Counted from the stretch's first letter, positions 3,116-39,654 are shown. The stretch: 40,684 nt of DNA from Rickettsiaceae bacterium (GCA_013214485.1 JABSSF010000003.1:1-40684); one strand, 5' to 3'. Notes: generated by a model not told the origin, from the letters alone. Numbers and translations: made by a program.

Positions 3116-3117
3116 TT

Positions 3118-8816: not shown

Positions 8817-8830
8817 GAAATAATTAAACG

Positions 8831-9367: not shown

Positions 9368-9399
9368 TTTTTAAGTTATTTTACAAAAATTTGTCATAT

Positions 9400-9438
9400 C
9401 TGGATTATCATGTCACCATAGGTAACTCGTGATGACGG
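9400..9438. repeat. RPE-like palindromic repeat core (inverted copy of 16412-16452)
   Basis: The reverse complement ccgtcatcacgagttacctatggtgacatgataatccag matches ccgtcatcacgagtcacctgtgggtgacgtggtgatccag at 16412-16451, about 85% identity by eye. It lies in the convergent spacer between cybB and ctaB. Confidence 0.65.
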
Positions 9439-9580
9439 TTTTCATTTTTCTTGGACACTAGTGTGCTTTCGCAGGGATGACAATGTGGATATCTTCTAAT
9501 AACCTTCAGATTAGCAGTAACTAGTTCAATGGTAGCGGATAAACCGCCTTCAACCAACTTGTCATCATCAAATAGTTACT

Positions 9581-10498
9581 TCAAAGAATTATAAGGCTTA
9601 AGAAGATAATGAAGAGATATAATATAGAGAACCAGAATAGTTTTTTAGCCTTTGCTAAATTATCATCCTTAAATAAACAGATAACATAATATAAGAAAGC
9701 AGCATCAAAGATACTAGCTATAATTAAATAACCGTGACCCCCCATATTATATATATATGGCATGATTGAACTTATTAATAGTAAAATAGTATAAAATAAA
9801 ATTTGCTTTTTAGTATAGGTAAAACCTTTAACAGCTGGCATCATTGGTACATTACAACTTTGATAATCTTTAGTTTTAAATATTGCTAGCGCCCAAGAAT
9901 GTGGCGGAGTCCAGAGGAAAATTATCATAAATAAAATTATGGCTTCTATGGAAATCTCACCAGTTACAGCAACAACCCCAATCATTGGTGGCAGAGCTCC
10001 TGCAACGCCACCTATTACAACATTCTGGATCGAATTACGCTTTAACCACATCGTATAAATGAAAATATAATATAAGATAGTAAATAATAACAATCCTGCT
10101 GCAAGAAAACTAACACAAAGTGCCATCATTAATACAGACATTACGGTAAGAACAATGCCAAAAGATAATGCTTCATCAGCCGCTATTTTGACTTGAACTA
10201 TTGGTCTTTTGCGTGTTCTAGTCATAATAGCGTCAATATCACGATCATACCACATATTAAGCGCTGCTGCTGCTCCTGATCCAGTCGTTACGCACAAAAT
10301 AGTAGCAAATGCAATTACTGGAGAAATAGTGCCTGGAGCTAAAATTATCCCACAAATAGCTGTAAATACTACCAAAGACATTACCCGAGGTTTCATCAAT
10401 AAGAAATAATCCTTAACCGAAGATGAGTCCACACTATCTGTGCTAGATTGCTCTAAATTTACTTTACTGCTTTGAGTTAAAGTTACTGATTTTTGCAT
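9581..10498 (-). CDS. ctaB: Protoheme IX farnesyltransferase (heme O synthase)
   Basis: UbiA-family polytopic membrane protein with [19 protein letters not shown]. Immediately downstream of ctaD. Confidence 0.9.
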
Positions 10499-16866: not shown

Positions 16867-17616
16867 ATGCGTAAAGAATCTATTATCTCACTAGTTGTTC
16901 TATTAATATTTATATTATTACCAACTCCAGCTTTTGCTGAAGAATCTTTTGCTGAAGAATTAGATAACCTGCTTAGTAGTGGATCGATGACTAGTCGTAT
17001 CATGCAGCTATTTATGCTAATTACGGTACTGTCCTTAGCTCCTGCAATTTTAATCATGACTACTTCCTTTGTTAGAATTGCGATAGTATTCTCTATTCTC
17101 CGTTCTGCACTGGGCTTGCAGCAAACTCCACCAAATCAAGTGTTAATAAGTCTTGCACTTTTTCTCACATTTTTTATAATGTCACCAACATTGGAGCAAG
17201 CTTATGATGAAGGTCTGCGTCCTATGCTTGAGGAAAGTATTACTGAAGAAGAGGCTATGCCTTTAATAGTTGATCCATTTAAAAAATTTATGGTTGGTAA
17301 TACAAGAACCAAAGACCTTGATTTATTTATATCAATTTCTAAGGTAAAACCACCAAAGGAATTATATAATTTACCACTAAATGTGGTAGTCCCTGCTTTT
17401 CTAATTAGTGAATTAAAAAGGGGATTTGAAATAGGCTTTTTGATATTTTTGCCGTTTCTAATTATTGATATAGTAGTTGCTTCAATACTTATGGCAATGG
17501 GTATGATGATGATGCCACCAGTAATGATTGCTTTGCCATTTAAAATAGTATTCTTTGTTTTAGCCGATGGTTGGTATTTGCTTGCTGGCAGTCTAGTACA
17601 AAGTTTTACGATGTAA
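16867..17616 (+). CDS. fliP: Flagellar export gate protein FliP
   Basis: Signal peptide, then LAPAILIMTTSFVRIAIVFSILRSALGLQQTPPNQVL and FLISELKRGFEIGFLIFLPFLIIDIVVASILMAMGMMMMPP. Confidence 0.95.
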   Translation: MRKESIISLVVLLIFILLPTPAFAEESFAEELDNLLSSGSMTSRIMQLFMLITVLSLAPAILIMTTSFVRIAIVFSILRSALGLQQTPPNQVLISLALFLTFFIMSPTLEQAYDEGLRPMLEESITEEEAMPLIVDPFKKFMVGNTRTKDLDLFISISKVKPPKELYNLPLNVVVPAFLISELKRGFEIGFLIFLPFLIIDIVVASILMAMGMMMMPPVMIALPFKIVFFVLADGWYLLAGSLVQSFTM

Positions 17617-18682: not shown

Positions 18683-19458
18683 TGTTTACATATTCATTTT
18701 TAAAAAAATATTGGCAATCAGTCACTTTAATGATGACAACATCAATTGCTAAATATAATAAAAATACTTTTCTAGGCTCTTTTTGGAGCTTACTACAACC
18801 ATTTACTCATTTAGCAGTAATTTCTTTCTTTTTTAGTTTTTTACTCAGACAACCAACAAACAGAATCGTTGAAAATCTTGTTGGTGGTTTGCCTTTTTGG
18901 ACATATATTTCATCTAGTTTATTTGAAACAGCAAACTCCTTAGTTAGTAGAGCTGGTATTTTAAAAAAAGTTGTTATTTCTAAAACATATTTTCCCGTAG
19001 CAGATAGTTTAGTACATGTTTATAATTTGGCCTATACCTTTGTTGCTATGTATTTAGTGTTAATATTATTTTATCCAGAAAAATTTAGTATATTAGTCAT
19101 TTTTGTTCCATTACTTACCATCCCTTTAATTATTTCAATTATTGCTGTTGGAATTGCTGCTGCTTTCCTAACTCCTTATATCAGAGACATCCCTAGCCTG
19201 ATTAATGTTTTACTTAGTGTGATTTATTGGACAATACCAATTATCTATCCTTATACTTTGATTCCAGAATCAAAACGTTTTTTCTTTGACTTTCATCCAC
19301 TTTATATCTTAATTAGACCAATGCAAACTTTGGTTATTACTGGACAATTACCAGATATAATCATGATCTTCAAATCATGTATAGTTTGTTTGCTCAGCGT
19401 CATAGTTAGCTTTCTTATTTATAAAAAGTTAACTAGAAATGTAATATATTATTTATAA
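18682..19458 (+). CDS. ABC-2 type transporter permease (Wzm/TagG/RfbA-like)
   Basis: Six predicted TM helices and an N-terminal FLGSFWSLLQP motif. TAATG overlap with the ATPase gene. Confidence 0.8.
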   Translation: MFTYSFLKKYWQSVTLMMTTSIAKYNKNTFLGSFWSLLQPFTHLAVISFFFSFLLRQPTNRIVENLVGGLPFWTYISSSLFETANSLVSRAGILKKVVISKTYFPVADSLVHVYNLAYTFVAMYLVLILFYPEKFSILVIFVPLLTIPLIISIIAVGIAAAFLTPYIRDIPSLINVLLSVIYWTIPIIYPYTLIPESKRFFFDFHPLYILIRPMQTLVITGQLPDIIMIFKSCIVCLLSVIVSFLIYKKLTRNVIYYL

Positions 19459-22400
19459 TGCAGTTAAAATACGATCTTGATCTTCAGCAATTATATTCTC
19501 TATCTGGGCTTAAAAAATTAGAGCAATATTTTATTCAATTCTTAACTGAAAATAATTCTAAATTAGCTTTAAAATATCTAGAATTTCGCCAGCTCGCTGC
19601 AAGAAAGCCTAGCGAGTTAGATGCTACATTATACTCAGAATTATTGTTAGAAATTGCCACAATTTTTGATGAGTTTATCGCTAATTTATTTAATATTGAA
19701 TCAGAGAATTTAGCTTTGCAACAAACACATAATAAATTTGCCATTATCTATGAATGTCGGCGGAAATTTGTTAAGCGCTTTGCTGTTAAAAAATACCCAG
19801 TAGAAAAATTAACTGAAATTGATTTTACCAAAGTAAGTAAAGAATTAACTAAATTAATAGGTAATTTTAATGAAAGAAATTTTGCCAGGCATGTAATTAA
19901 TTGGCAATTAGATGAAGAAACTCATATAAAAGAGCTAGATATAGCTGCTAAATATGCTGCCTATATGGTGCATAATAATAGCTCTATTACTTTATTTAAT
20001 ATTGAAAAACTAATCGATCCTGCAAATCTAATTAGAAAACATAAAATCCAACAGTTACGCCAAGAATTATCTTTAGGTTTTGCTTATAGAGATCCAGAAA
20101 TTAATAAAGATACAGCTATAGCTGAGGCAAATTATTGTATTTATTGTCACAAACAAGGTAAAGATTCTTGCTCTAAAGGTTTTAGTAAAAGCCAATCAGA
20201 TAAATATCAATCACATAAACAAGTTAATAATGTTGTTGAAAAAAATGGTTGTCCATTAGAGCAAAAGATTTCTGAAATGAATAAAGTAATGACAGATGGT
20301 TATAATATTGCAGCACTTGCTATTATTATTATTGATAATCCTTTAGTTGCAGCAACTGGTCATCGTATTTGTAATGATTGTATGAAAGCTTGTATTTACC
20401 AAAAGCAAGATCCAGTAAATATCCCATTAATAGAATCAAAAATTCTTGATAATGTTTTGAATCTTCCTTATGGTGTGGAAATCTATTTATTACTTACTCG
20501 TTGGAATCCACTAAATATATTTAAGCCAATTTCCAAAGTAAATACTGGATATAATATTTTAGTAACAGGCCTAGGGCCTAGCGGTTTTGCATTATCACAT
20601 TATTTACTTAATGAAGGACATAGTGTGATAGCTATTGATGGGATGAAAATTGATCCCATAGATTTTGATATTTCTAAACCTATTAAAGATTGGCAAAAAA
20701 TCAAAGAATCATTAACTAAAAAAATACCTACAGGATTTGGTGGGGTTGCTGAATATGGTATTACTAATCGTTGGGATAAAAATAATCTGAGCTTGATTAG
20801 ATTAATGTTAGAGCGCCGTGATAATTTTAAATTATATGGTGGAGTACGCCTTGGCAGTAACATCCTAATTAATCAAGCCTTTAAACAAGGGTTCGACCAT
20901 ATAGCATTATGTCTTGGTGCAGGTAGCCCTAAATATTTAGCTGATATAGATTATTTCTTAAAAGGAGTACGTAGTGCTGCTGATTTTCTAATGAATCTAC
21001 AACAAGGTGGTGCTTTTTTGAAGACTAGTAATAGTAATTTAACAATCCGCATGCCAGCTATAGTTATTGGTCTTGGTTTAACAGCTATTGATAGTGCTTC
21101 AGAAATATTACATTATTATCCTGAATTAGTAGAAAATTTCTATAACAAATATGAAAAATTAACTAATAAATATAGTGAAGAATTTGTTAAGCAAAGTTGG
21201 AATGATGAAGATAAGGAAATTGCTTTAGAATATATTACTCACGCAAAATTATTTCGTCGAGCTAAAAATACGACAGAAAAACTGGCTATTTTAAATGATT
21301 TAGGTGGTGTTACTATTTGTTATCATAAAAAAATTATAGATTCACCTGCCTACAGATTAAATCATGAAGAAATAGAACATGCTATGGCACTGGGGATTAA
21401 ATTTCAAGAAGAAGCTAGTTTAAACAAGATAATTCCTGATAAAAATAATTATGCAAAATATGCCATTTTTAATGACGATTTGAAATTATCTGCTAGAACT
21501 ATAATTATGGCTATTGGGACAAAAAATAATGAGTTTAATGATATTGATTATGATTTTAATTCTACAAAATTTAGCCATTTTGGCGATTGTGATCCTAAAT
21601 ATACAGGCAGTGTAGTAAAAGCTTTAGCTAGCGTTAAAAATGGTTATCAAAATATCACTAAAAAACTACCAGCTAATCCTAGTTTTTCTGGTAGCTATGC
21701 TAAATTTACTAATAATTTAGAGCAAATACTAGTAAATCATATAGTAGAGATTAATATTATAGCTAAGAATGTTGTTGAGCTCATGATAGATGCTCCACAA
21801 CTAATTAAAAATTTTCAGCCAGGACAATTTTTCCGTCTGCAAAATTATAGTAAAGAACTAAACTCTCTAACAGAACCAATTGCTTTAACTGGTGCTTATG
21901 TTGATGAATCTAGGAAATTACTTTCATTAATTATTTTGGAAATTGGTAAATCAACTAAATTATGCCGTAATTTTAAAGTAGGTGACAAGATCAGCTTAAT
22001 GGGGCCTACTGGAGTAGCTACAAAAATTGCTAAAAATAAATCTATAGCATTAATCGGGGGGGGGCTTGGTAATGGAGTATTGTTATCTGTAGGAAAGGCT
22101 TTAAAAGAAAATGGTTGTCAAATTATTTATTTTGCAGGTTATCGCAAATTGCAAGATCGTTTCTATCCCGATAAAATTACTACCATTGCTGATAGGGTTA
22201 TTTGGTGCTGCGATGAAGCTAAACTTGATAAAGTTACAAAATCAGATTTATCAATTCATGGTAATATTCTTGATGGCCTTAAGTTTGCTAAAGAAAATAA
22301 GTTGGTTGATAAGGTAACAGAAATTATCTGTATTGGCTCTGATTCAATGATGCAAGCAGTAAGTAATAATTACAAAGAATATTTTAATAAGGATAGCAGG

Positions 22401-22616
22401 TTAATTTGTAGTCTAAATTCACCAATGCAATGTATGATGAAAGGTATTTGTGGTCAATGTCTGCAAAAAGTTAACTCGTCTGATGGTTATATTTTTTCTT
22501 GTAAAATGCAAGATCAAAGAGCTGATATTATCGATTTTACTGTACTAAAAAACCGTTTAGGGCAAAACTCCTTACTAGAAAAAATTAGCTTAGTTTATGT
22601 GAATTCTGAGAATTGA
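19458..22616 (+). CDS. Large fused flavoprotein: helical N-domain + GltD/NfnB-like Fe-S and FAD/NAD(P) oxidoreductase + PyrK/NfnA-like ferredoxin-reductase domain with a C-terminal 2Fe-2S motif
   Basis: Cys clusters CIYCHKQGKDSC...GCPLEQKI and HRICNDCMKAC. Dinucleotide fold ILVTGLGPSGFALSHYLLNEGHSVIAIDG. PyrK-like PGQFFRL, LMGPTG, IGGGLGNG. Terminal CMMKGICGQCLQKV...FSC. Confidence 0.7.
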   Translation: MQLKYDLDLQQLYSLSGLKKLEQYFIQFLTENNSKLALKYLEFRQLAARKPSELDATLYSELLLEIATIFDEFIANLFNIESENLALQQTHNKFAIIYECRRKFVKRFAVKKYPVEKLTEIDFTKVSKELTKLIGNFNERNFARHVINWQLDEETHIKELDIAAKYAAYMVHNNSSITLFNIEKLIDPANLIRKHKIQQLRQELSLGFAYRDPEINKDTAIAEANYCIYCHKQGKDSCSKGFSKSQSDKYQSHKQVNNVVEKNGCPLEQKISEMNKVMTDGYNIAALAIIIIDNPLVAATGHRICNDCMKACIYQKQDPVNIPLIESKILDNVLNLPYGVEIYLLLTRWNPLNIFKPISKVNTGYNILVTGLGPSGFALSHYLLNEGHSVIAIDGMKIDPIDFDISKPIKDWQKIKESLTKKIPTGFGGVAEYGITNRWDKNNLSLIRLMLERRDNFKLYGGVRLGSNILINQAFKQGFDHIALCLGAGSPKYLADIDYFLKGVRSAADFLMNLQQGGAFLKTSNSNLTIRMPAIVIGLGLTAIDSASEILHYYPELVENFYNKYEKLTNKYSEEFVKQSWNDEDKEIALEYITHAKLFRRAKNTTEKLAILNDLGGVTICYHKKIIDSPAYRLNHEEIEHAMALGIKFQEEASLNKIIPDKNNYAKYAIFNDDLKLSARTIIMAIGTKNNEFNDIDYDFNSTKFSHFGDCDPKYTGSVVKALASVKNGYQNITKKLPANPSFSGSYAKFTNNLEQILVNHIVEINIIAKNVVELMIDAPQLIKNFQPGQFFRLQNYSKELNSLTEPIALTGAYVDESRKLLSLIILEIGKSTKLCRNFKVGDKISLMGPTGVATKIAKNKSIALIGGGLGNGVLLSVGKALKENGCQIIYFAGYRKLQDRFYPDKITTIADRVIWCCDEAKLDKVTKSDLSIHGNILDGLKFAKENKLVDKVTEIICIGSDSMMQAVSNNYKEYFNKDSRLICSLNSPMQCMMKGICGQCLQKVNSSDGYIFSCKMQDQRADIIDFTVLKNRLGQNSLLEKISLVYVNSEN

Positions 22617-23716: not shown

Positions 23717-25447
23717 CTACTTATTATTATTTTGACCATAAACCAATTTAATTTTAGGAAATATAATTTTCACTTTTGTGCCTTCTCCTTTTTTACTTGT
23801 TATGATCAAACTAGCATCATGGGCATCTAATAACATTTTAACAATAGGTAACCCTAAGCCATATGATCCTCTAGAATGACTATTACTTCCTACTATACCA
23901 TAAGTACTTAAAGCTATTTCTATTTCATGTTCGTCCATACCAATACCTTCATCAATCACAGTTATTACTATCGTTTCTTCTACTAATTCTGCAACAATAT
24001 TTATATTGGTATTATCATTAGAATATTTGATAGCGTTACTGACTAAATTACTAAATATTTGTAACATTCGCCGCTTATCACAAATCACAAGCGGTAAATC
24101 TTTACTAAGCTTCTGATTAACAGTAATTTTTCTTTGATTATATCTTGCCAAATTAACTTTAATAGCTTCTTTTATAATGCTTTTAATATCTGCTGTGGAA
24201 TTAACAATTCTAAATCTTCCTTCAATTATTTGATTATCATCAAGTATATCAGTAATAAAATCGAGAATAATTTTTGAATTTTGGTGAATACCTTCAGCAT
24301 ATTTCATATAAGCTGCTGGCAAGTTACCTAACAATTCTTTTTTCATAATTTCTGAACCAGTTAAAATAAAACCAAGGGGAGATCTTACCTCATGCGCTGT
24401 AAAAGCAAGAAAATCAGTTTTAGCTTGTGTCGCATTATTAGCAACTATTGTTGCTTTTTCTGCTTTTTCTCGAAGTACTGCTTCTCTTTTATATAAAGAA
24501 ACTATTGAGAAAAAACAAACAATAGCAAGCACAGCCACTTCAATAAATCTTCTTGCAACGCTATCTAAAATATTTTGCTTGATAACATTATCATCAATAT
24601 TAACAATAATGATAAATGGCAAGCCACCTAAAGGTTTGATGTAGTAATTAATGCCATTAATCATATCTAGATAATGATGATCTGAATTGCTTTGTTTAAT
24701 TTTTAGATCTTTAATAATAGATTTCAAATTATTTGCAAGACCATTTTCATCAACTACATTATTAATGACTTCTTTGGATCTAGCAATAACATTATAATCA
24801 GTATCTATAATAATAAAATTAGCATCAATATTTCTTTTTATACTATTAAGACTTCTAACCAAAGTACCAATATCATAACTAAGTATTACTGAGCCTATAT
24901 ATTTATTACTATTTCCATCAACAATACTATCAATTATTTTCAGCTTACGTTCTTTTTCTTGAAAGCCAGTATAAAATGAAATTCCATAAGGATTACGTTT
25001 TGAAGGTGTTTTTACTATATCTTTTACATATTTTAAAAACTGAAAATTTTTTTTAAAATTTTTATTACTAGTAGCAACCTCCTTGAAATCTTTATTTACC
25101 CAACTATATTTGCGCCAACCAAAAAAATAGTTCAAATCTCGAGATTTAAAATTTTCCTGCAATAATTTTCTGATATATCGTGTATCATTGTGATGCTCCT
25201 TGATAGATTTTGAAATAATTCTAATAAAATACTGTGAGTAATTAATGCGATCTGTAAGTACTGTACCCAGATTGCTAGCTTCAATTTTTAACTCTTGTAA
25301 TACTAATTCTTTATTATTATGATATGTTCTAAAAAAATATAATAAAGTAAGACAAATAACTACAAATATAATTATTATTGTCAAAATATGAATATTCAGA
25401 TTATACCCCAAATGTTTTTTTTCCTTGTAATTACGATTTTTATTCAT
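23717..25447 (-). CDS. Sensor histidine kinase with a large periplasmic (Cache-like) domain; no adjacent response regulator
   Basis: TM1, about 250 aa periplasmic, TM2. H-box FLAFTAHEVRSPL, N-box SNLVSNAIKYS, G-boxes DEGIGM and GLGLPI. Confidence 0.9.
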   Translation of the reverse strand: MNKNRNYKEKKHLGYNLNIHILTIIIIFVVICLTLLYFFRTYHNNKELVLQELKIEASNLGTVLTDRINYSQYFIRIISKSIKEHHNDTRYIRKLLQENFKSRDLNYFFGWRKYSWVNKDFKEVATSNKNFKKNFQFLKYVKDIVKTPSKRNPYGISFYTGFQEKERKLKIIDSIVDGNSNKYIGSVILSYDIGTLVRSLNSIKRNIDANFIIIDTDYNVIARSKEVINNVVDENGLANNLKSIIKDLKIKQSNSDHHYLDMINGINYYIKPLGGLPFIIIVNIDDNVIKQNILDSVARRFIEVAVLAIVCFFSIVSLYKREAVLREKAEKATIVANNATQAKTDFLAFTAHEVRSPLGFILTGSEIMKKELLGNLPAAYMKYAEGIHQNSKIILDFITDILDDNQIIEGRFRIVNSTADIKSIIKEAIKVNLARYNQRKITVNQKLSKDLPLVICDKRRMLQIFSNLVSNAIKYSNDNTNINIVAELVEETIVITVIDEGIGMDEHEIEIALSTYGIVGSNSHSRGSYGLGLPIVKMLLDAHDASLIITSKKGEGTKVKIIFPKIKLVYGQNNNK

Positions 25448-27439: not shown

Positions 27440-28302
27440 TCATTTCGATTGACAAGTGTATAATTTAAAGGAGTGATCAATAGTTTGTTGTAGTGTATCA
27501 AATTGTGAGATAGTATTTTTTACTTTTTCTTTTAAATTAGCCCAAAATTTCTCTATTGGATTAAGATCTGGTGAATATGGTGGTAAAAACATTATTTTGC
27601 ATCCAGCACTTTCAATTAATTCTTTTGTTTTAAGTGATTTATGGAATGCTGCATTATCCATTATTACTAACTGTCCTGGTTTCAGCTCTGGCAATAAAAT
27701 CTTCTCTAGCCAAATATTAAATAATCCCGTGTTACACGTTCCTTGATAACAAAAAGGCGCCATAATTTTAGTACCACACTTAGCTGCTACAAAGCTCTCT
27801 CTAGCATAGCGTTTTCCAGAGTTTGTACCATGAACCAACTCTCCCCGTTTAGCCCAACCATGGGATTTATTTAAAAAACAATCTATCCCACTTTCATCAA
27901 TATAAACAAGGTTATCCTTAGATATATTTTTTATATTTTCTGTAAATATTTTTCGTTTTTTTTCATCCCGCTCTTTATACAGTATAGTCTTTTTTTTCTA
28001 GTAAAGCCCAAGCGTTTTAAAGCATCCCATACGCAGCTGATTGTTACGCCAAAATGGTTAGCATAATCTTTAATATATAAATCTGGATTAATTGTTACGT
28101 ATTCCTTTAAAAGCTAAGGGTTCAGCTTTCTCCATCCTCTTTTTAAAGGAGCATCTTCCAAATTACCATTTTGCTCAAGCATATCTAGCCATTTGTTCAG
28201 TGTCACTACTGATATTTCAAATAAACTACATGATTTTGATTGATTATTGCTTTTTTTATAGTGAGCAATTACACGTTTTCTGAATATTATTGGATATTTC
28301 AT
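27440..28302 (-). pseudogene. IS630-family DDE transposase, interrupted
   Basis: N-terminal HTH ORF (28114-28302) ends at an in-frame TAG at 28114-28116; copy 1 reads GAT (Asp) there. The downstream part needs a -1 frame change at the A8 run. The C-terminal part carries the DDE region (IMDNAAFHK, LPPYSPDLNPIEKFW). Confidence 0.8.
27990..27997 (-). promoter_or_regulatory. A8 slippery run at the junction of the two transposase frames (candidate programmed -1 frameshift or transcriptional slippage site)
   Basis: On the coding strand, act aga aaa aaa aga read in the -1 frame after the run gives KKK TILYKERDEKKR... and continues into the DDE domain. An identical T8 run on the plus strand is present in copy 1 at 12-19. 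Confidence 0.55.
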
Positions 28303-28515: not shown

Positions 28516-28833
28516 CTAATAAAGAGTTAATACTAATTTTTTATTTAATTTATTTTCAAGGATTACTTCATTTTCAGTAATTTCTGTTATAGTATAGATA
28601 TTATCTACAGTACTTCCTACATTAAAAATTTTACCATTAATCACACAAACTTTCTCATTTTCACTATCAACAATTGCAGAAAGCATATATTCTTTTTGTA
28701 ATTTTTTGGGAATATTTTTAACTTTTTCTTGTTTTGGCTTCATCGGGTCTATTAGCTTTTCTTCTGCCATACAATCGGGTTTTATAAAAAAAATAATTTG
28801 TATAATAATAATTTTAATTATTCTTACTTTCAT
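28516..28833 (-). CDS. PilP/MshK/GspB-like small periplasmic protein
   Basis: N-terminal hydrophobic leader. The C-terminal pattern LSAIVDSENEKVCVINGKIFNVGSTVDNIYTITEITENEVILEN...LVL is typical of MshK/PilP-type proteins. Last gene of the module. Confidence 0.45.
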   Translation of the reverse strand: MKVRIIKIIIIQIIFFIKPDCMAEEKLIDPMKPKQEKVKNIPKKLQKEYMLSAIVDSENEKVCVINGKIFNVGSTVDNIYTITEITENEVILENKLNKKLVLTLY

Positions 28834-29311
28834 ACAAACTCCTTAATTGTAATGATATATATAATGAATTATTTTTTTGTATTTTTAATTTTAAAGAGTC
28901 CAGACGGTAAAACATATTATTTTCATTTAAATGGATTAAATATTTAAGTAAACTAATATAATTACCTTCTAAAGACAGAGAATATCCAGCCTCTATAATA
29001 TCATTATTCTCCGGCATTATCGTATAACTAGATTTTTGGTTAAATATTTTTATATTATAAAGCGAAATAATATCGCTAAAATTCTCCTGAAGAACAAACG
29101 GAGCAGTAATTAGCATTGGATCTCTATAAGAGCTTATAAATCTATTATTTGCTTTATATTCCAAATAATTATTTAACATTTTTTTACCCTCATAAAATAA
29201 GGTAAAAATAATCAATATGTTAATAATAAAAAAACTATAAATTCTTAGCTGATAAAACGACTTCAGCTTCAAAATTATAGAAGATGCTACTATTCTCATC
29301 ATCCTCTTCAT
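28814..29311 (-). CDS. PilO/MshJ-like bitopic membrane protein
   Basis: One TM (IYSFFIINILIIFTLFY). C-terminal YSLSLEGNYISLLKYLIHLNENNMFYRLDSLKL...LYISLQL resembles the PilO/GspM fold signature. Overlaps the upstream gene by up to 77 nt. Confidence 0.45.
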   Translation of the reverse strand: MKRMMRIVASSIILKLKSFYQLRIYSFFIINILIIFTLFYEGKKMLNNYLEYKANNRFISSYRDPMLITAPFVLQENFSDIISLYNIKIFNQKSSYTIMPENNDIIEAGYSLSLEGNYISLLKYLIHLNENNMFYRLDSLKLKIQKNNSLYISLQLRSLYESKNN

Positions 29312-29810
29312 TATTATCCTCTAATGAATTTATGCCTTTATCTTTAAGAAATAACGCCACCGCAAAAGGCACGGGTGGTTTTTCTTGCTCCTCCTCTTCT
29401 TCCTCGATTTGTATTTGCTCTTTATTTTTAATCTTAACCGTTATAATTTGTACCTTTGCAAATTCTACTATTGAATTTAGATAGTCTTCAATTTCATCAT
29501 AATTAAGCGATCTGAGTGTAAGGAAAATTTCATTGCCTTCTAATTTCATCTTATGTACCCATAGATTCATAGTTTGCACCTTAGTAAATGCACTCATTAT
29601 TTCGATATATCGTGAAGATGATATCAGCATTCTATCATTTTGCATTTTTATTAATAAACTAGCTTTTCTACCTACGGATTCTTCATAATGTGGTACTAGC
29701 CATTTAATATTTGAATAATACATTCCCGCCACCATTAAAATTAAAATAAAAAATAATTTATATGACCCCAAAGGAAAAATAATTTTATTCTTTATCAATT
29801 CTTTTGCCAT
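29235..29810 (-). CDS. PilN/MshI-C-like bitopic membrane protein with an acidic insert
   Basis: Start moved to the internal ATG at 29810 (MAKELIK), just after the upstream stop. One TM. KMKLEGNEIFLTLRSLNYDEIEDYLNSI matches the PilN ferredoxin-like pattern. Contains an EEEEEEQEKPP insert. Confidence 0.5.
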   Translation of the reverse strand: MAKELIKNKIIFPLGSYKLFFILILMVAGMYYSNIKWLVPHYEESVGRKASLLIKMQNDRMLISSSRYIEIMSAFTKVQTMNLWVHKMKLEGNEIFLTLRSLNYDEIEDYLNSIVEFAKVQIITVKIKNKEQIQIEEEEEEQEKPPVPFAVALFLKDKGINSLEDNNEEDDENSSIFYNFEAEVVLSAKNL

Positions 29811-29814
29811 AAAA

Positions 29815-30831
29815 CTATTTTTTATTAACCCATTCATTTATTACTTTAGAGGCTAATTCCTTATTTATTGGTTTGAATATAACACTATTCATATCTACTT
29901 CCTTACAGTGTTTTACATAAGCCTCTGAATGGTTAGAAGTTAATCCAATAATTGGAATCCTTTTTAAATTTAATTCCTTTTCTCGTTGACGTATATTTAA
30001 AGTACATTCAAATCCATCCATTATAGGCATTTCACAATCCATGATAATTAAATCATAATCATGATTTTTTTCTAAATTATGTAAGGATTGTTGTGCGTTT
30101 GTTGATATTTCTACAGAAAGTTTTTGTTTAATTAATATAGATTTTAGAATTTTAGCATTTACCTTATTATCCTCAATGACTAACACTTTTTTAACATTCT
30201 TGTTAACTAATGGCATAATTATGAGCCAATATGTAAAAAGAATTAATATTAAACCTACTACTAGAGTAAATAACAATAACACTATTTCCACATGATATTT
30301 CATTAAATTTTTATCTTGATTGCAGGAACTAAAATTACTATCTAAATCAGTTAACAATTTATCTTTTATATATTCCAGTGAGGCTAAAAGATTTGGTTTT
30401 AAAGATTCATTAGAATTATCAGCTTCTATAAGATTTTCTGCATATTCTATAAGATTATTTACATCTTTAACTCTATTGGTAAAATTTAAATAATCTACTT
30501 TTTCCTTTGTTGTACCATTACTTAAATTAACTGATTTAATACAGATTAAAGAATCATTTAATGATTTCAATAACCTAGTATCTGTTATAATATTATCCTT
30601 TAAACATGAGCGAACATTTTGATCTTCAGTAAAAACTATATTAGTTGCGGTTATGGCGATTTTCTCAACCAAGATTCTATGCTTGGAAGCTAAATTAGAT
30701 TCAATTAAACTATTGTTAAAACTAAATATCAAAGATATTAATATAATGTATAATGATATCAATATCATTATCATTGTGAAGTTAATAGCTTTATATTTTT
30801 GTTGTAAAAATTCGTTTATTTGATGAATCAT
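29815..30831 (-). CDS. Membrane-anchored stand-alone receiver (REC) domain protein: TM, about 150-aa extracytoplasmic domain, TM, REC
   Basis: TM1 MIMILISLYIILISLIFSF and TM2 LLLFTLVVGLILILFTYWLIIMPL. About 8 aa after TM2 a complete CheY-like receiver begins (VLVIEDN, DLIIMDCEMPIMDG, IIGLTS, FKP). No HisKA/HATPase and no output domain. Confidence 0.8.
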   Translation of the reverse strand: MIHQINEFLQQKYKAINFTMIMILISLYIILISLIFSFNNSLIESNLASKHRILVEKIAITATNIVFTEDQNVRSCLKDNIITDTRLLKSLNDSLICIKSVNLSNGTTKEKVDYLNFTNRVKDVNNLIEYAENLIEADNSNESLKPNLLASLEYIKDKLLTDLDSNFSSCNQDKNLMKYHVEIVLLLFTLVVGLILILFTYWLIIMPLVNKNVKKVLVIEDNKVNAKILKSILIKQKLSVEISTNAQQSLHNLEKNHDYDLIIMDCEMPIMDGFECTLNIRQREKELNLKRIPIIGLTSNHSEAYVKHCKEVDMNSVIFKPINKELASKVINEWVNKK

Positions 30832-30967
30832 ACTTATATTTTTATCATTTAATATTTCAGCATAGAAATGTAAATAATACCTATGTAAGATGATAACTTA
30901 ATCTTATTTATTTATGCAAAAAACTTTTTACTTATTATACCAGAAATAAAATACTTGTGATATATAA

Positions 30968-32695
30968 TTAAAGTTTATATGACCCAATATCCTCTCTATC
31001 ATCAAAACTATTCACTATAGTTGGTTTTATAAGTACTATAACTTCTATTTTTTTACTGGCATTTCTGTTAGCAGAAAATAAATTAAAAATACGTCCTATT
31101 CCTTTATCATGTTCAAATGGTAAACCAGACCTATTAGTACTTACCATATCTTGAGTCATTCCTCCTAATATAATTATATCACCACTAAATGATTTAACTA
31201 CAGTATCAACTTCCCTGGATAAAATCATTGCTACAGGTATCCTTGAATCCCTATTATCAATCTTAATTAATTTATCTTCATCATCTACTCTACTAATCAT
31301 CGGATGAATGTGCATTATTACTTCATCATTACTTATAATATTAGGAGTTGCTTCTAATGCAACACCAGAAAAGATTGGCTCTAGGTCAAACCCCGATTGA
31401 GTATTAGCATTATCGGAATTTAAATTAGTTGTCAGGTTAGTAACATTAGTGACAAAATATTTATCCTCACCACTTTTTATTAAAGCTCTTTGATTATTTA
31501 AAACTGCAATACGCGGCGATGAAATCACTGATAATTTACCTTGAGTTTTCAATGCTTGCATTACCATATTAAAATCTTTTGCCGCAATTCTACCACTTAA
31601 AACATTATTTAAACTTAATTCATCTCCAGCAATATTAGAAGTATTATGTAAATTATTAATAGAGTCAAACGGAGCACTTACTGCTGCAAGTGATGATTGC
31701 CTTAGATCATTTTTTAACGTATCCCATTGAATGCCATTACTAAATTCTTCTCTTAATTCTACTTCCAGTATTTTAGCTTCAATTATTATTTGCCTTGTCG
31801 AATTCTTATTTACTTTATTTAAAAAATTCTTAATTAACCTTTGCTGACTTGGCATAGCACTTACAACTACTAGACCACTTTCACGATAAACATAAAATTC
31901 CTCAACTTTATTATCTCTATCATTATTTGTACTTGTTACTAAACTAGCTGGAGTAGATGCAGTTTGCCCTGTTGGTTGCCCTTCTCCTGTTACATCTATT
32001 AAAGCTATCGTATTTTTTGTTGTTGATTTTAAAATACTTCTAATAGTATTTTCTACGCTACCCCAAAAATTATCTTCTGACTCTGATTTTATAGTAGAAT
32101 AATTATCGCTTTCTTCATCTTCTTTAAGGGTGCTGCTAACAATAGAAATTGATGATTTTCCTTTCCTCTTAAAATTATGATAATTAACTTCATAAGTAAT
32201 GGTTTGTATTTGTGGTAAATATAAAGTATAACCATAATCTAAATCTTTTACACCAATATCATATATTTCTGTTAAACTATCCAGTACATCAGCTAAACAA
32301 ACATCATGTAAATTCAAAGTCAGTCCTTTAGCTTGGTTTAAATTTGCTGCATAGTTAATATTTTCTTTATAGGTATAGCTTAATAAAGTTGCTAATTCCC
32401 TTAATTTAATATCTTTAGTAACAATATTAGCTTTTTTGCATAAAGGACGTTGCTCTTTAAATGGATTGTCAAAAACTAAAACATTGTTCTCAGATGAGTC
32501 TTTTTCATTCTTATAAAATTCATTAAATTTTTTGATATCATTAGTAAATTTTTCTGAATATTTAGTAGTACTACAACTATTTAAAAACAAAAAAGTAATT
32601 ATAATATAAGGAATAACTCTCTTTTTATAAAAAAAGTATAAAGAATTCAGACTTAAATTCTTTATACTTTTAAATTGTGGTTTATAAAATAACAT
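30968..32695 (-). CDS. Secretin, MshL/PilQ type, probable lipoprotein
   Basis: Start placed at the internal ATG 32695, 4 nt after the upstream stop. Lipobox-like FLFLNSC. Secretin core QIIIEAKILEVEL, VISSPRIAVLNNQRALIKSGEDKYFVT, LEATPNI, IIILGGM, GLPF, VIVLIKPTIV. Confidence 0.85.
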   Translation of the reverse strand: MLFYKPQFKSIKNLSLNSLYFFYKKRVIPYIIITFLFLNSCSTTKYSEKFTNDIKKFNEFYKNEKDSSENNVLVFDNPFKEQRPLCKKANIVTKDIKLRELATLLSYTYKENINYAANLNQAKGLTLNLHDVCLADVLDSLTEIYDIGVKDLDYGYTLYLPQIQTITYEVNYHNFKRKGKSSISIVSSTLKEDEESDNYSTIKSESEDNFWGSVENTIRSILKSTTKNTIALIDVTGEGQPTGQTASTPASLVTSTNNDRDNKVEEFYVYRESGLVVVSAMPSQQRLIKNFLNKVNKNSTRQIIIEAKILEVELREEFSNGIQWDTLKNDLRQSSLAAVSAPFDSINNLHNTSNIAGDELSLNNVLSGRIAAKDFNMVMQALKTQGKLSVISSPRIAVLNNQRALIKSGEDKYFVTNVTNLTTNLNSDNANTQSGFDLEPIFSGVALEATPNIISNDEVIMHIHPMISRVDDEDKLIKIDNRDSRIPVAMILSREVDTVVKSFSGDIIILGGMTQDMVSTNRSGLPFEHDKGIGRIFNLFSANRNASKKIEVIVLIKPTIVNSFDDREDIGSYKL

Positions 32696-32699
32696 TAAT

Positions 32700-33266
32700 T
32701 TATCTTCCGCCACCACTTGGAAGTCCACCGCCTGAGAATAAATTCTCATAATTAATATATGTACAAACTGACAAATATTTATTATCGGTTTCATCTCTGA
32801 TAAATGACGCAGTGAATTCTTTAGTACTGTTACTTCCCATAAATTCTTCTACATTTCTATCGGCATTAGTTAAACATTCCCAAGCAGTAATTTTTTCATC
32901 CTTGTGATTATAAATAGGAATTAAAAGTATCTGCTTACCTAATAATGCTTTAGCTACTGGTGTAACATGACCTTTACTACCTTTTTTTGCCATACCATTA
33001 AATTGAAATTCAATTTTATAGTCTTTAGAAATATTTAATATTGTAATATAAGGATTTTCTTCATTTTTTAACACACTATACGTACTTCTTAAGTGGTTAC
33101 CATGATTTTCCTCATAAAGACGCTCAGCCTGCTTTACTGCTCCGTAGATTGCGCTATCAACATTGCTTAGAGTAGCTTTTGCACCTGCTAATTTAGCACC
33201 AAAAGCTGTACTAGTTGTTAGAGCTAAGATAGTTCCAGTTAGTAAACATAAAGTTTTTTTCTTCAT
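32700..33266 (-). CDS. Type IVa pilin head-domain-like protein with a Sec-type signal peptide instead of a prepilin leader
   Basis: MKKKTLCLLTGTILALTTSTAFG then AKATLSNVDSAIYGAVKQAERLY (alpha1-C-like). C-terminal ITAWECLTNAD...KYLSVCTY resembles the disulfide-bonded D-region (WxC...KYLPxxC) of PilA/PilE. No G/FTLIE motif and no Glu5. Confidence 0.5.
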   Translation of the reverse strand: MKKKTLCLLTGTILALTTSTAFGAKLAGAKATLSNVDSAIYGAVKQAERLYEENHGNHLRSTYSVLKNEENPYITILNISKDYKIEFQFNGMAKKGSKGHVTPVAKALLGKQILLIPIYNHKDEKITAWECLTNADRNVEEFMGSNSTKEFTASFIRDETDNKYLSVCTYINYENLFSGGGLPSGGGR

Positions 33267-33601: not shown

Positions 33602-34327
33602 ATGAAGAAATGTATCACAACTGTATTTTATTTACTAGATAATTTTTGTAAAGAATATGAAAAATGGCAAAATAAAAATCTCTTACCACAAAATGGTATA
33701 AGAAAACGAGAAGGAAAATTACGACTTTCAGAGTTATTAACTATAGTGTTATATTATTATTTATCTCCCTGTAAAGACTTTAAGAACTACTATTTATATT
33801 ACTTATCAAGTAAATATAAAGGTTATTTTAAATTACCATGTTACAGTCGTATAGTACAACTAATGCCAAGACTTATACTACCATTATCAATAGTAATGCA
33901 AATCTTATCAGGAAGAGAAACAGGCACTTATTATATTGATTCTACAAAATTACAAATATGTCATAATAAACGAACTTCTAGTAATAGAGTTTTTAATAAA
34001 ATTTCTAAATTAGGACGCAGTAGTTATGGCTGGTTTATGGGATTTAAACTACATATGATAATTAATAATAAAGGAGAAATTATGGCAATAAAAATTAGCA
34101 AAGAAAATAAAAGTGATCTATCAGCAGTTAAAGATTTAGTTAAAGGATTAAACGGTACTATTTATGGGGATAAGGGATACATTTCCCGAAAACTATTTGA
34201 AGAGTTATATAGTTCTGGACTAAAGATATTTACTAGTATACGTAAGGATATGAAAAATCACTTACTTAATAATAGTGATAAATATTTTATGCGTAAAAGG
34301 GTTTTAATTGAATGTGTTTTTAAATAA
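33602..34327 (+). mobile_element. IS982-family transposase gene, 3'-truncated (remnant)
   Basis: The N-terminal and DDE-region pattern (YIDSTKLQICHNKR, GWFMGFKLHMIIN, IYGDKGYIS) is typical of IS982. The ORF stops at ...LIECVFK, roughly 50 aa short of family members as I recall them. Element ends were not identified. Confidence 0.65.
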
Positions 34328-36811: not shown

Positions 36812-38323
36812 ATGCAAAAAGCTATTAAAGCAATTATATTATCTAGAGTATCATCAAAAGATCAAGAAGATGGTTATTCATTAGAAGTACAAACAGATAG
36901 ATTAGAAAAATATTGCGATCGCAGGGGACTTCATATTATCAAACGTTATCAAATAGTAGAATCTTCTACTAAAGGAGACCGCAAGCAATTTATGGAAATT
37001 ATTAAATTTATTAAGTCGCAGCGTGAACCGATAGCATTTGTTGCAGATAAGGTTGATAGAATACAAAGAAGCCAAAAAGAAACCCCCATATTAGATGATA
37101 TGATAAGACAAGGGAAATTAGAATTACATTTTAATAGCGAAAGTTACATTATTCATCAGGAATCAAGCGCTCACGAGTTAATGATGTGGGGTATGGGAGT
37201 TGTAGTTGCTAAAAGCCATACTGATTTACTCAGTGAAAATGTCAAAAAAAGTTTAAAACGTAAAGTAGAAGCCCATGGAGAGTGGTATGGCTCAGCACCT
37301 ATAGGCTATTTAAATCAACGTGATCAGCGTGGTAGGGGTATAATAGTTACTGACCCTATATCGGCATCAATTGTTACAAAATTATTTGCAGAATTTGCAA
37401 CTGGAGTTTATACTTTATCACAAATGGTAACAAAAGCTAAAGAATGGGGGTTACGCAGTAAAAAAGGGGGGTATGTAAATAAGTCTGTTCTACATCGTAT
37501 GTTTAGAAACCCTTTTTATTATGGTCAAATGAGATTTAAAGGCGAACTATGGACACATAACTATGAGAGATTAACTACAATAGAAACATTTAAAAAATGC
37601 GAGGCAACACTTATGGGCTGGAAGAAAAAACCTTTTCAATATCGAGGTAAAGAATTCTTATTTAGAGGTTTATTAACTTGTAAGACAACTGGCAAATTGG
37701 TTCTTAGTGATACTAAAGTAAAGAAATACCCAAGTCGCAAAAAATCAGAGTGGACTTATTTAATAGCATATGACCCAAAAAACTCAAAAAAGAAAATTTG
37801 GGTAAGAGAAGACAAAGTTATCAAACAATTAGAAGAAGTACTAAAAAATTTAGCTATAAAAGATGAAAAAATCCTAAAACAAACCATGGAGTATTTAACA
37901 GCGGTAAATGAAGGCAAAAAACACGATTTTAATAGAGAAGTTGGTGCATTAAAGCAAGAACACGCAAATATTCAGAATAAGCTTGATAAGCTATTAGATT
38001 TACTCGCTGAAGGGGTTTTGACTAAAGAGGAATTTTTAACCAAGAAAAATAAATATAAAGAACGTCAGCACGAGTTAACAGAATTATTACAAACTTATGA
38101 CAAGATTGATGATAAATTTTCTAAAAAGCTGCTAGAGGTTATAAACATTACTAATGAAGTTTATGATACTTTTAAGGGTTCAAAAATTTCTGAAAAAAGG
38201 CAATTATTAAAGTTCATGTTCTCGAACCTTTTTCTGGGGCAGCGGAGTGCTAGAGTACAGCTGGACTTTTCCATATCTAGTGAACTGGCAAAATTAACCA
38301 ATTGTGTACTTCCTGAGAGATAG
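36812..38323 (+). CDS. Large serine recombinase (resolvase/invertase catalytic domain + recombinase domain + coiled coil); 3' end probably altered by IS insertion
   Basis: Catalytic region AIILSRVSSKDQEDGYSLEVQ, VADKVDRIQRS. Recombinase domain PIGY, NPFYYG. C-terminal coiled coil. The last roughly 9 codons lie inside the IS481 left end. Confidence 0.85.
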   Translation: MQKAIKAIILSRVSSKDQEDGYSLEVQTDRLEKYCDRRGLHIIKRYQIVESSTKGDRKQFMEIIKFIKSQREPIAFVADKVDRIQRSQKETPILDDMIRQGKLELHFNSESYIIHQESSAHELMMWGMGVVVAKSHTDLLSENVKKSLKRKVEAHGEWYGSAPIGYLNQRDQRGRGIIVTDPISASIVTKLFAEFATGVYTLSQMVTKAKEWGLRSKKGGYVNKSVLHRMFRNPFYYGQMRFKGELWTHNYERLTTIETFKKCEATLMGWKKKPFQYRGKEFLFRGLLTCKTTGKLVLSDTKVKKYPSRKKSEWTYLIAYDPKNSKKKIWVREDKVIKQLEEVLKNLAIKDEKILKQTMEYLTAVNEGKKHDFNREVGALKQEHANIQNKLDKLLDLLAEGVLTKEEFLTKKNKYKERQHELTELLQTYDKIDDKFSKKLLEVINITNEVYDTFKGSKISEKRQLLKFMFSNLFLGQRSARVQLDFSISSELAKLTNCVLPER

Positions 38324-39572
38324 TATGCAGAAAATTCCGAAGACATAGTATACACTTTTTTCATTTGCGAGGTAGCATATGACATGGAAGGAGTGTAGTA
38401 AAATGGACGAGAAATTAAAGTTTGTAGCAAGATTGTTAGAAGGAGAAAAGATTGCAGTGTTATGCCGTGAGTTTGGTATTACAAGGCGCACAGGTTATAA
38501 GATATTTAATCGCTATAAAGACTACGGTCTTGAAGGCCTTCAAGACCGTAGTGGCAAGCCCTATAGACATGCAAATCAATTACCATACCAAATTGAGAGA
38601 GCAATATTGGGTATAAAGAAGGAATATCCAAGTTGGGGAGCCCCTAAAATTAAGGAAAAATTGTTACGTCAATTTCCTGATATTAAACATCCTGCTATTA
38701 GCACAATACATGCGGTGCTAGATCGTAATGGTTTAGTAAAAAGACAAAAACGTAGACGATATAAAGCACAAGGAACAGAGCTTCTGGAACATAACAGCAT
38801 CAATAGTCTTTGGTGTTGTGACTACAAAGGAGAGTTTATGCTTGGTAATAAAGAATATTGTTACCCTTTGACCATTACAGATTATCATTCACGATATTTG
38901 CTTGCTTGCGAAGGGCAAGAATCTACAAAAGAACAAGGAGCATTTGCTGTTTTTGAAAGCGTTTTTAGAGAGTTTGGATTACCTGATACTATTCGCAGTG
39001 ATAATGGTATACCTTTTGCATCTCCAAATGCCTTATATGGTTTAAGCAAATTATCCGTTTGGTGGCTTAGACTCGGCATAAAAATAGAAAGAATTAAACC
39101 TGGTAACCCTCAACAAAATGGCCGTCACGAACGAATGCATAGAACTCTAAAACAAGATACTGCCAAACCTCCAGCATTTAATCTTCTGCAACAACAAGAA
39201 AAATTTGATCATTTTCAGAAAGTATACAATTATGAGCGTCCTCATCAAGCTATTGCTAACAAATACCCTGCAGAACTGTATACACCTTCTACTAGAGTTT
39301 ATAAAGGATTACCAGATATTGATTATCCTTTTGCTGATAAAATTGTTACCATTACAAAATGTGGAAGAATATGTATTGGAAAAAAGAAAATCAGTGTAAG
39401 TAGTGTATTTGCTGGACAAAATGTTGGTATTTCTCAAGTTGATGATAAAATTTGGCTTGTACAATTCATGCTTTATGATATAGGATACTTTGATATGGAT
39501 ACTTGTAGGCTAGAACCTATTGATAATCAGCTTACCTCGAAACTGTATACCATGCCTCCAGAATGTACCATT
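38296..39572 (+). mobile_element. IS481-family insertion sequence
   Basis: Imperfect terminal inverted repeats: left aaccaattgtgtacttcctgagagatagtatgcag; reverse complement of right aatggtacattctggaggcatggtatacag. Flanked by a 7-bp direct repeat caaaatt (38289-38295 and 39573-39579). Alternative boundaries 38298-39581 (ccaatt/aattgg) cannot be excluded. Confidence 0.6.
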
Positions 39573-39584
39573 CAAAATTGGTGA
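38403..39584 (+). CDS. IS481-family DDE transposase (integrase core domain)
   Basis: Start at the internal ATG 38403 after aaggag. N-terminal HTH (IAVLCREFGITRRTGYKIFNRY). DDE triad contexts WCCDYKG, IRSDNGIPF, NGRHERMHRTLK. The stop codon lies 3 nt inside the tRNA 3' end. Confidence 0.85.
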   Translation: MDEKLKFVARLLEGEKIAVLCREFGITRRTGYKIFNRYKDYGLEGLQDRSGKPYRHANQLPYQIERAILGIKKEYPSWGAPKIKEKLLRQFPDIKHPAISTIHAVLDRNGLVKRQKRRRYKAQGTELLEHNSINSLWCCDYKGEFMLGNKEYCYPLTITDYHSRYLLACEGQESTKEQGAFAVFESVFREFGLPDTIRSDNGIPFASPNALYGLSKLSVWWLRLGIKIERIKPGNPQQNGRHERMHRTLKQDTAKPPAFNLLQQQEKFDHFQKVYNYERPHQAIANKYPAELYTPSTRVYKGLPDIDYPFADKIVTITKCGRICIGKKKISVSSVFAGQNVGISQVDDKIWLVQFMLYDIGYFDMDTCRLEPIDNQLTSKLYTMPPECTIQNW

Positions 39585-39654
39585 GCCCGCCGGGATTCGA
39601 ACCCGGGACACCCTGATTAAAAGTCAGGTGCTCTACCAGCTGAGCTACGGGCTC
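39579..39654 (-). tRNA. tRNA-Lys (anticodon UUU), CCA encoded
   Basis: The reverse complement folds as a cloverleaf: GAGCCCG ta GCTC agctggta GAGC a CCTGA cTTTTaa TCAGG gtgtc CCGGG ttcgaat CCCGG CGGGCTC a cca. All four stems are fully paired. Confidence 0.95.

Follow-up and report, generated by a model that had tools for sequence, protein, structure and literature searches.

What can an outer-membrane secretin do when the genes beside it encode a periplasmic scaffold and pilin-like proteins, with no engine among them to push anything through it? The question is raised by a 40,684-nt stretch of DNA from a Rickettsiaceae bacterium (GCA_013214485.1, JABSSF010000003.1:1-40684; hereafter the window), in which positions 28516-33266 hold a six-gene module of this kind. 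Four things mark a type IV filament machine, namely an ATPase, a platform protein, a prepilin peptidase and pilins able to polymerise, and in the usual view it takes the push of a filament or piston to open a secretin. The original prediction for this locus, made from the sequence alone, hesitated between a decaying pilus operon and a pared-down conduit with an alignment complex and an input by phosphorylation. We give an even chance to the reading that a type IV filament machine of the mannose-sensitive haemagglutinin (MSHA) class gave rise to this conserved, self-contained locus through the loss of all its cytoplasmic-side parts. The window, which is AT-rich (about 30% GC), was assigned to the Rickettsiales by its signature rvh type IV secretion system (T4SS) cluster and by the nearest relatives of the secretin, which lie in metagenome-assembled genomes (MAGs) titled Rickettsiaceae or Rickettsiales.

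The module consists of six co-directional minus-strand open reading frames (ORFs), all of them intact. In the direction of transcription these encode a pilin-head-like protein (188 aa; 32700-33266), recognised from its ORF, predicted structure and family motifs; a lipoprotein secretin of the MshL class (575-608 aa; 30968-32695 from an ATG, or up to 32794 in the longest ORF), recognised with Pfam and NCBIfam; a receiver (REC) protein with two transmembrane segments (338 aa; 29815-30831), recognised with Pfam Response_reg; a MshI2/PilN-like, putatively bitopic inner-membrane protein (200 aa; 29235-29837), assigned with hhalign; a MshJ/PilO-like, putatively bitopic inner-membrane protein (165 aa; 28814-29311), assigned with hhalign and by gene position; and a likely periplasmic adaptor of the MshK/GspB type (105 aa; 28516-28833), assigned with hhalign and matches to CdsD_C and T2SSB. 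The last three are called the N-, O- and K-like proteins below. Only 4 nt ('atta') separate the pilin-like stop codon from the secretin ATG at 32695, and the last four genes overlap one another by 23 nt (REC/N), 77 nt (N/O; 65-68 nt with a downstream Met) and 20 nt (O/K), so that the layout originally described for these six genes was borne out by the ORF coordinates. Long N/O overlaps, of 35-62 nt by called gene coordinates, are found in the relatives too. The claim that the gene order resembles neither pilMNOPQ nor mshIJKL holds for the module as a whole; its inner N-O-K order, however, is canonical.

The secretin matched Pfam Secretin (PF00263) over model positions 1-168 of 169 (2.3e-27; 96.1 bits against a cut-off of 27.5) and also Secretin_N_2 (3.8e-5). 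Its best subfamily was TIGR02519 MshL (2.2e-61), at 207.4 bits under the 250.2-bit equivalog cut-off, and the remaining subfamilies scored far lower (GspD 120, PilQ 78 and HofQ 36 bits, with PilN-IVb and SctC also much lower). By these profile scores it is MshL-like rather than a certified MshL, which narrows the MshL/PilQ-type lipoprotein first proposed to the MshL class. The lipobox reads FLNS-C in the window and LTGC, LSSC or LSAC in relatives, with a Cys at least 90% conserved across 24 secretin sequences, as in the lipoprotein (self-piloting) secretins, and lipidation is predicted. About 26 secretins with 34-63% identity were found in Rickettsiales-like metagenome contigs, and the next relatives beyond this set were gammaproteobacterial MshL proteins at approximately 29-31% identity. 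An origin as a filamentous-phage secretin was rejected, there being no phage genes nearby and the secretin being of the MshL class.

Several variants of the secretin locus were seen outside the window. In more distant Rickettsiales MAGs (L003 and L005-L009) the secretin stands without adjoining N-, O- or K-like or pilin-like genes. In two of these, L008 and L009, which are very different in GC content (0.30 vs 0.195), the lone secretin (L008:9989-11578; L009:1480-2865) lies directly downstream of a full-length VirB9/CagX gene (L008:9162-9974, Pfam 8e-57; L009:382-1158, 2e-60), with no virB10 after it, and this adjacency may be a functional T4SS outer-membrane link or a coincidence. In the Rickettsiaceae MAG L004 the secretin is divided between two ORFs (8362-9141 and 9271-10116), either a pseudogene or an assembly error, and three pilin-like paralogues and the N-like and O-like genes are intact beside it.

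Single-sequence searches with the three small proteins returned no significant match, save for weak matches of the 105-aa protein to CdsD_C (1.1e-5) and T2SSB (1e-3). Families were built from related loci and compared profile to profile (hhalign) with MshI1, MshI2, MshJ and MshK families taken from approximately 150 gammaproteobacterial MSHA loci. The N-like family matched MshI2 (probability 94.2%, E 1.1e-7), the K-like family matched MshK (98.6%, E 8.3e-16) and the O-like family matched MshJ (50.8%, E 1.6e-4; other families <1%), with all off-diagonal comparisons at or below 3.4%. Pfam PilN was the top family for two of ten N-like members (best E 4.5e-5), and the sole PDB sequence match of the N-like profile was M. 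xanthus PilN (3jc8, E 0.8). Pfam PilO was the top family for one of nine O-like members (E 3.5e-3), and the O-like gene lies between the N-like and K-like genes in all module loci. PDB profile searches with the O-like and K-like families yielded nothing informative. Taken together, these comparisons point to MshI2-, MshJ- and MshK-like homologues standing in MSHA order, and the PilN-, PilO- and PilP(MshK)-like labels of the original prediction were right in kind and can now be made more precise.

For the K-like protein, CdsD_C and T2SSB each matched seven of eight family members (best CdsD_C match 3e-7), and the window copy combines a signal peptide and a D-P-M-K-P motif with a small β domain at the C-terminus, of the secretin-binding homology region (HR) type. 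The combination of signal peptide and DPxKP motif (DP[TM]KP) is common to the K-like proteins and gammaproteobacterial MshK. It gave no PilP match and has no lipobox, and on these features it is a putative functional analogue of PilP rather than a member of the PilP family. The N-like proteins differ from their counterparts at the N-terminus, where an INLY/INLL motif was found in none of ten, as against 77 of 80 gammaproteobacterial MshI2 proteins. We take this cytoplasmic motif, of the INLLP type, to be the PilM-binding site of PilN-type proteins, as in the T. thermophilus PilM-PilN structure; judged by its absence, the N-like proteins have apparently lost the ability to dock PilM through it while keeping a predicted PilN-like periplasmic core.

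The 338-aa protein carries two transmembrane segments flanking a periplasmic loop of about 130 aa and a C-terminal cytoplasmic receiver with no output domain, and the Response_reg match (PF00072; 9.4e-23, 80.9 bits against a cut-off of 30.2) agrees with its earlier description as a membrane-bound receiver. The acidic pocket, the phospho-acceptor D (MDCEMP), the T/S and the K-P are kept in all six receiver orthologues; by profile and residues the domain is intact, and its phosphorylation is predicted. The gene lies directly upstream of the N-like gene, which is the slot of the PilM-like MshI1 in gammaproteobacterial loci. It is optional, being present in six of ten module loci and missing from four. 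At 23717-25447, 3 kb downstream of the module on the same minus strand, lies the gene of a histidine kinase (HisKA and HATPase_c, with a dCache domain in the periplasm), a candidate partner of the membrane-bound receiver protein.

The 188-aa protein begins with a signal peptide ending AFG|A, followed by an α1-C-like helix, a four-stranded sheet, a conserved W-x-C-x-T-N-A-D motif and a C-terminal Cys. As a single sequence it had no relevant Pfam or NCBIfam match, and the family recovered by an exhaustive profile search falls into 97 clusters at 50% identity. An AlphaFold (AF2) model built with a 62-sequence family alignment (predicted local distance difference test, pLDDT, 86.9; predicted TM-score, pTM, 0.80) showed a long helix lying against a sheet of four strands, and the sole good match in a Foldseek search of the PDB was N. 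meningitidis PilE (8p3b; E 1.4e-3, probability 1.00, 133 columns, TM-score 0.41/0.47), with the runner-up at E 0.74. This model superseded an earlier one built with a 7-sequence alignment (pLDDT 62), whose top match, non-significant but reached independently, was the truncated P. aeruginosa K122-4 pilin 1qve. Both the model and its PilE match are in line with the pilin-head label given originally. At the sequence level, no coherent picture emerged from Pfam for 62 members of the family, nothing above noise came out of PDB profile searches (alignments of 12 and of 62 sequences), and hhalign against six MSHA pilin families from the gammaproteobacterial loci gave probabilities below 1%.

Within the family, the two invariant residues are a Cys pair, and 57 of 62 members show aromatic-x-C-x-T-[DN]-x-D, a motif that recalls the D-region of pilins. 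Neither a class III leader (G-F-T-L-I-E type) nor a hydrophobic α1-N was seen in any of the 62, and all 62 have Sec-type n-h-c leaders with an A-x-A-type cleavage site just before the helix. The leader and stem that define type IV pilins are thus not found in these proteins, and the globular head, with moderate confidence from the predicted fold, is; we regard them as natural 'stemless' pilin heads. Compared with the major pilins of type IVa systems (PilE, K122-4/PAK), they share the predicted α1-C helix on a four-stranded antiparallel sheet and a Cys pair that brackets the C-terminal region in the manner of the D-region disulfide, within a W-x-C-x-T-x-x-D motif. They differ in lacking the class III leader, the Gly-Phe site, Glu5 and the α1-N stem, with a peptide for Sec and signal peptidase I instead, and in having no detectable sequence similarity to Pfam Pilin, to the PDB or to MSHA pilins. 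In this respect they resemble pilins that were artificially truncated for crystallography. Some members carry variable Gly/Ser/Asn-rich or Cys-rich C-terminal tails, which would fit surface exposure.

The head also recurs in other settings. In one family member of 2541 aa (P0109) the helix region of the profile (positions 30-65) matches at 23 separate places, P0111 and P0153 were noted with it, and other members are extended at the C-terminus by Cys-rich stretches or by approximately 250 aa; the head may serve as a building block of larger surface proteins. In two of the assemblies in which the secretin is alone (L006, L007; MAGs CANGIW01, JAIOYM01), one or two pilin-head paralogues adjoin the mraZ-rsmH-ftsL-ftsI (dcw) cluster (L171:8838-10246; L173:259-828; L174:1890-2459). 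Here the pilin-like genes are kept though unlinked to the secretin, and because of this we suggest that the secretin and the pilin-like genes are retained together.

Is the arrangement more than an accident of one contig? A search of other Rickettsiales bins found nine further independent, syntenic loci, with 36-63% secretin identity to the window, bringing to ten the distinct Rickettsiales-type loci that carry a secretin, the N-, O- and K-like genes and one to three pilin-like genes (the window, L001, L002, L004, L085, L086, L164/165, L166, L167 and L168/084); a metagenome scan contributed only three Rickettsiales-type loci. The N-O-K block is invariant, and the secretin and pilin-like gene or genes take three cyclic positions around it. 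A tandem duplication in L167 was considered and rejected, the upstream partial ORF not being a secretin. The neighbours are housekeeping genes that vary by locus, and only the window has flanking insertion sequences (ISs). The gene arrangement is not due to chance; it is a conserved unit rather than a decaying one-off. In the literature open to searching, no account turned up of the six-gene arrangement, of MshL-type secretins in Rickettsiales or of pilin heads that depend on Sec.

The genes of the motor were sought in several ways. A Pfam scan of 30 other ORFs of the window, including every listed ORF of at least 130 aa, found no PilB/GspE-type ATPase, PilC/GspF, PilM or prepilin peptidase (peptidase A24), and the sole T2SSE-family ATPase was VirB11 (4617-5612), in the rvh cluster 23 kb from the module; this upholds the absence of PilB/PilT/GspE-type ATPase, platform, PilM and peptidase genes noted originally. 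A tblastn search with MshE, MshG, MshI1, MshM, MshN, MshF and MshA found no homologue in 280 kb of Rickettsiales-type loci, and precomputed annotations of these loci contained no T2SSE, T2SSF, PilM or peptidase_A24 family. Among gammaproteobacterial MSHA loci with full flanks (n=61), MshE was present in 55, MshG in 54 and MshI1 in 56.

Set against the MSHA system of Vibrio and other Gammaproteobacteria (mshI-J-K-L-M-N-E-G-F and pilins), the module shares a secretin closest to MshL, a lipoprotein with Secretin_N_2, and three small proteins that match MshI2, MshJ and MshK in order and at similar sizes. It differs in lacking, in cis, MshI1, MshM, MshN, MshE, MshG, MshF and a class III pilin; in a secretin that precedes the I2-J-K block (L167 is the exception, with the secretin after the block and a pilin-like gene); in the transmembrane receiver in the MshI1 slot; in pilin-related genes with Sec leaders; and in an MshL score below the cut-off. 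Judged in cis by gene content, the module does not appear to be an MSHA system as defined, the ATPase, platform and class III pilins being missing; it would work like the secretin and alignment subcomplex of an MSHA-class machine, from which it clearly descends. The type IVa PilMNOPQ complex of P. aeruginosa, M. xanthus and T. thermophilus follows the same logic of a secretin, a secretin-binding adaptor and a PilN/PilO-type pair, with weak direct matches to Pfam PilN, Pfam PilO and M. xanthus PilN, but the module is without PilM and the PilM-binding motif, its adaptor is of the MshK/GspB type rather than the PilP family, and its secretin is a lipoprotein of the MshL class, not PilQ (78 vs 207 bits). 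With the type II secretion system (T2SS; GspC/GspD/GspL/GspM, with GspB in some) it shares a folded protein exported by Sec, a secretin, an adaptor of the HR-domain kind with weak T2SSB/T2SSC matches and a PilN/O-like pair, which makes two-step export a working analogy. It differs from the T2SS in having no GspE, GspF or pseudopilins, and hence no piston, and in a secretin that is MshL-class rather than GspD (120 vs 207 bits).

How might such a device work? In the reading that we prefer, of a self-contained MSHA-class derivative, the MshL-like lipoprotein secretin would form the outer-membrane channel, and the MshK/GspB-type HR-domain protein would join it to the inner-membrane MshI2/MshJ pair, of PilN/PilO type, to make a trans-periplasmic scaffold. 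The link to the cytoplasm would have been removed, PilM/MshI1 and the docking motif both being gone, and in most versions the receiver protein with two transmembrane segments would sit in the lost MshI1 gene slot and probably couple the scaffold to a phosphorelay; control by phosphorylation is suggested because a membrane-anchored receiver replaces the cytoplasmic link. Delivered by Sec and cleaved by signal peptidase I, the one to three pilin-head proteins per locus would be soluble in the periplasm. A PilB/PilC motor could not extract and polymerise them, since the hydrophobic α1-N stem is missing; most likely they would be cargo or a surface-displayed partner of the secretin. The route would have two steps, like type II secretion, without the piston. 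We infer that the parts form one complex, that the secretin houses the pilin heads or lets them through, that a motor is not required and that REC phosphorylation exerts control. In M. xanthus, the secretin and scaffold part of the pilus is assembled from the outside in, independently of the motor. Conservation across loci favours the conduit proposed originally, with its alignment complex and phosphorylation input. A more specific proposal is possible, though somewhat unlikely: a secretin pathway that needs no motor and is gated by a phosphorelay would export stemless pilin-head adhesins delivered by Sec, or display them on the surface of aquatic Rickettsiales. It is equally tentative that such a pathway, by discarding the ATPase, platform, prepilin peptidase and polymerisable pilin, would constitute a new class of two-step outer-membrane export.

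Several points weigh against this reading. We know of no secretin that opens for cargo without a piston or filament, and motor-free export would, to our knowledge, be unprecedented. Rickettsiales routinely scatter the genes of their machines, as with the rvh T4SS, and this genome retains other envelope machines (the rvh T4SS and fliP). The absence of the motor holds in cis, and a PilB/PilC/PilD set together with true pilins may lie elsewhere in the genome. The link to pilins comes from fold and motifs, with a moderate structural match (TM-score 0.41-0.47) and no sequence-level link found, and the MshJ/PilO assignment of the O-like protein, by profile comparison, is the weakest of all. Furthermore, according to a published survey, some aquatic Rickettsiales that diverged early have components of a type IV pilus (PMC10847448).

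The main rival is that the operon encodes only the secretin and alignment subcomplex of a split but complete MSHA-like pilus, and that other parts of a scrambled Rickettsiales genome supply its ATPase, platform, prepilin peptidase, PilM-like protein and true pilins. Soluble substrates are released through type IVb pilus machines in the cases of TcpF and CofJ, and the pilin-head proteins would, on this alternative, be accessory in a similar way, as soluble substrates released through the pilus machine or else as periplasmic regulators. We consider a split pilus possible, though somewhat unlikely, and the same holds for this accessory role of the pilin heads. The nearest relatives of all four envelope proteins sit in complete MSHA operons, flagellar and T4SS genes are kept in a genome of an order whose machine genes are typically dispersed, and pilus components have been reported in some early-diverging or aquatic members of that order (PMC10847448). 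Against it, the PilM-binding motif is gone from the N-like protein in all ten loci, the 280 kb of sampled flanks contain zero motor or true pilin genes, the pilin-related genes that travel with the module are stemless ones only, and the module switches genomic neighbourhood as a unit. The findings fit both a module that works without a motor and one that borrows a motor encoded elsewhere.

It is improbable that the secretin, with or without the scaffold, serves some other process, such as DNA uptake in the manner of HofQ, cooperation with the rvh T4SS or general permeability of the outer membrane, and improbable to the same degree that the pilin-head proteins are, as this would have it, unrelated periplasmic or surface proteins that share regulation only. 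The lone secretin directly after full-length VirB9 in two distant MAGs, the secretins without adjoining N-, O- or K-like or pilin-like genes in several MAGs and the weak NCBIfam HofQ matches would agree with another function, but the secretin, N-, O- and K-like and pilin-like genes are syntenic in ten loci, HofQ scores far under MshL (36 vs 207 bits) and competence genes are not adjacent.

It is very improbable that a decaying pilus operon, no longer functional and caught between insertion sequences, is what remains here, even with IS remnants on both sides in the window, motor genes all absent from the window scans and a secretin split into two ORFs in L004, for the six window ORFs are intact, their orthologues are intact at 22-63% identity in nine loci without IS flanks, and conservation extends to the REC D/T/K residues, the lipobox Cys, the pilin Cys pair, the DPxKP motif and the overlapping starts; the 'decaying pilus locus' first entertained is contradicted by an intact unit kept across ten diverged loci in varied genomic contexts.

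If the module is truly autonomous, a secretin and scaffold with a Sec-routed pilin head and no engine would challenge both the definition of type IV filament machines and the idea of how secretins open. The Rickettsiales, an order whose host-interaction machinery draws wide interest, would moreover gain a system for export or surface display that had gone unrecognised. If instead the motor is found elsewhere, the system would be an MSHA-like pilus split to an unusual degree, with a new family of accessory proteins and a receiver in PilM's place. In addition, about 100 sequence clusters of Sec-dependent pilin-head proteins are here defined as a family without a Pfam home.

The surroundings of the module are rich in mobile elements. 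An IS630-type transposase remnant (27440-28302, minus strand) lies on one side, with a DDE_3 match (9.9e-27) at 27440-27838 and an N-terminal HTH-like ORF at 28114-28302; the split between the two may reflect a frameshifted remnant or programmed frameshifting. A truncated DDE transposase (33602-34327, plus strand; DDE_Tnp_1_3, 2.5e-54) lies on the other side. The bracketing by IS remnants that was reported originally is therefore real, as a peculiarity of this window and no feature of the module. A composite transposon or recent horizontal gene transfer was rejected, the GC content of the module being that of the window and the other loci having no IS flanks. Farther along, positions 36812-39654 encode a serine recombinase (503 aa) and after it an IS481-like integrase/transposase (38379-39584), which at its end overlaps an opposite-strand tRNA-Lys(UUU) gene (39579-39654); together with the two IS remnants, these look like a mobile-element-rich patch. 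A promoter and terminator scan found promoter-like sites no commoner than in shuffled sequences and zero terminators, such a scan being uninformative in AT-rich DNA.

Elsewhere in the window, the rvh-type T4SS cluster (1969-7365, plus strand) comprises virB8, a truncated virB9, virB10 (TrbI), virB11 (T2SSE family) and virD4. The truncated VirB9 is 141 aa long and covers only positions 1-103 of the 198-position CagX model, and a Fic-domain protein is encoded just upstream of the cluster (659-1816). A full-length fliP (16867-17616, plus strand; Pfam FliP, 3e-79) is apparently alone, preceded by a 91-aa ORF without a match and followed by ABC-transporter genes, with no further flagellar gene seen in the window. 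Cytochrome oxidase genes are also encoded. Finally, a 1052-aa protein (19458-22616, plus strand), with weak Fer4_20 and Pyr_redox_2 matches only, is a GltD/DPD-like oxidoreductase unusually large for a reduced genome.

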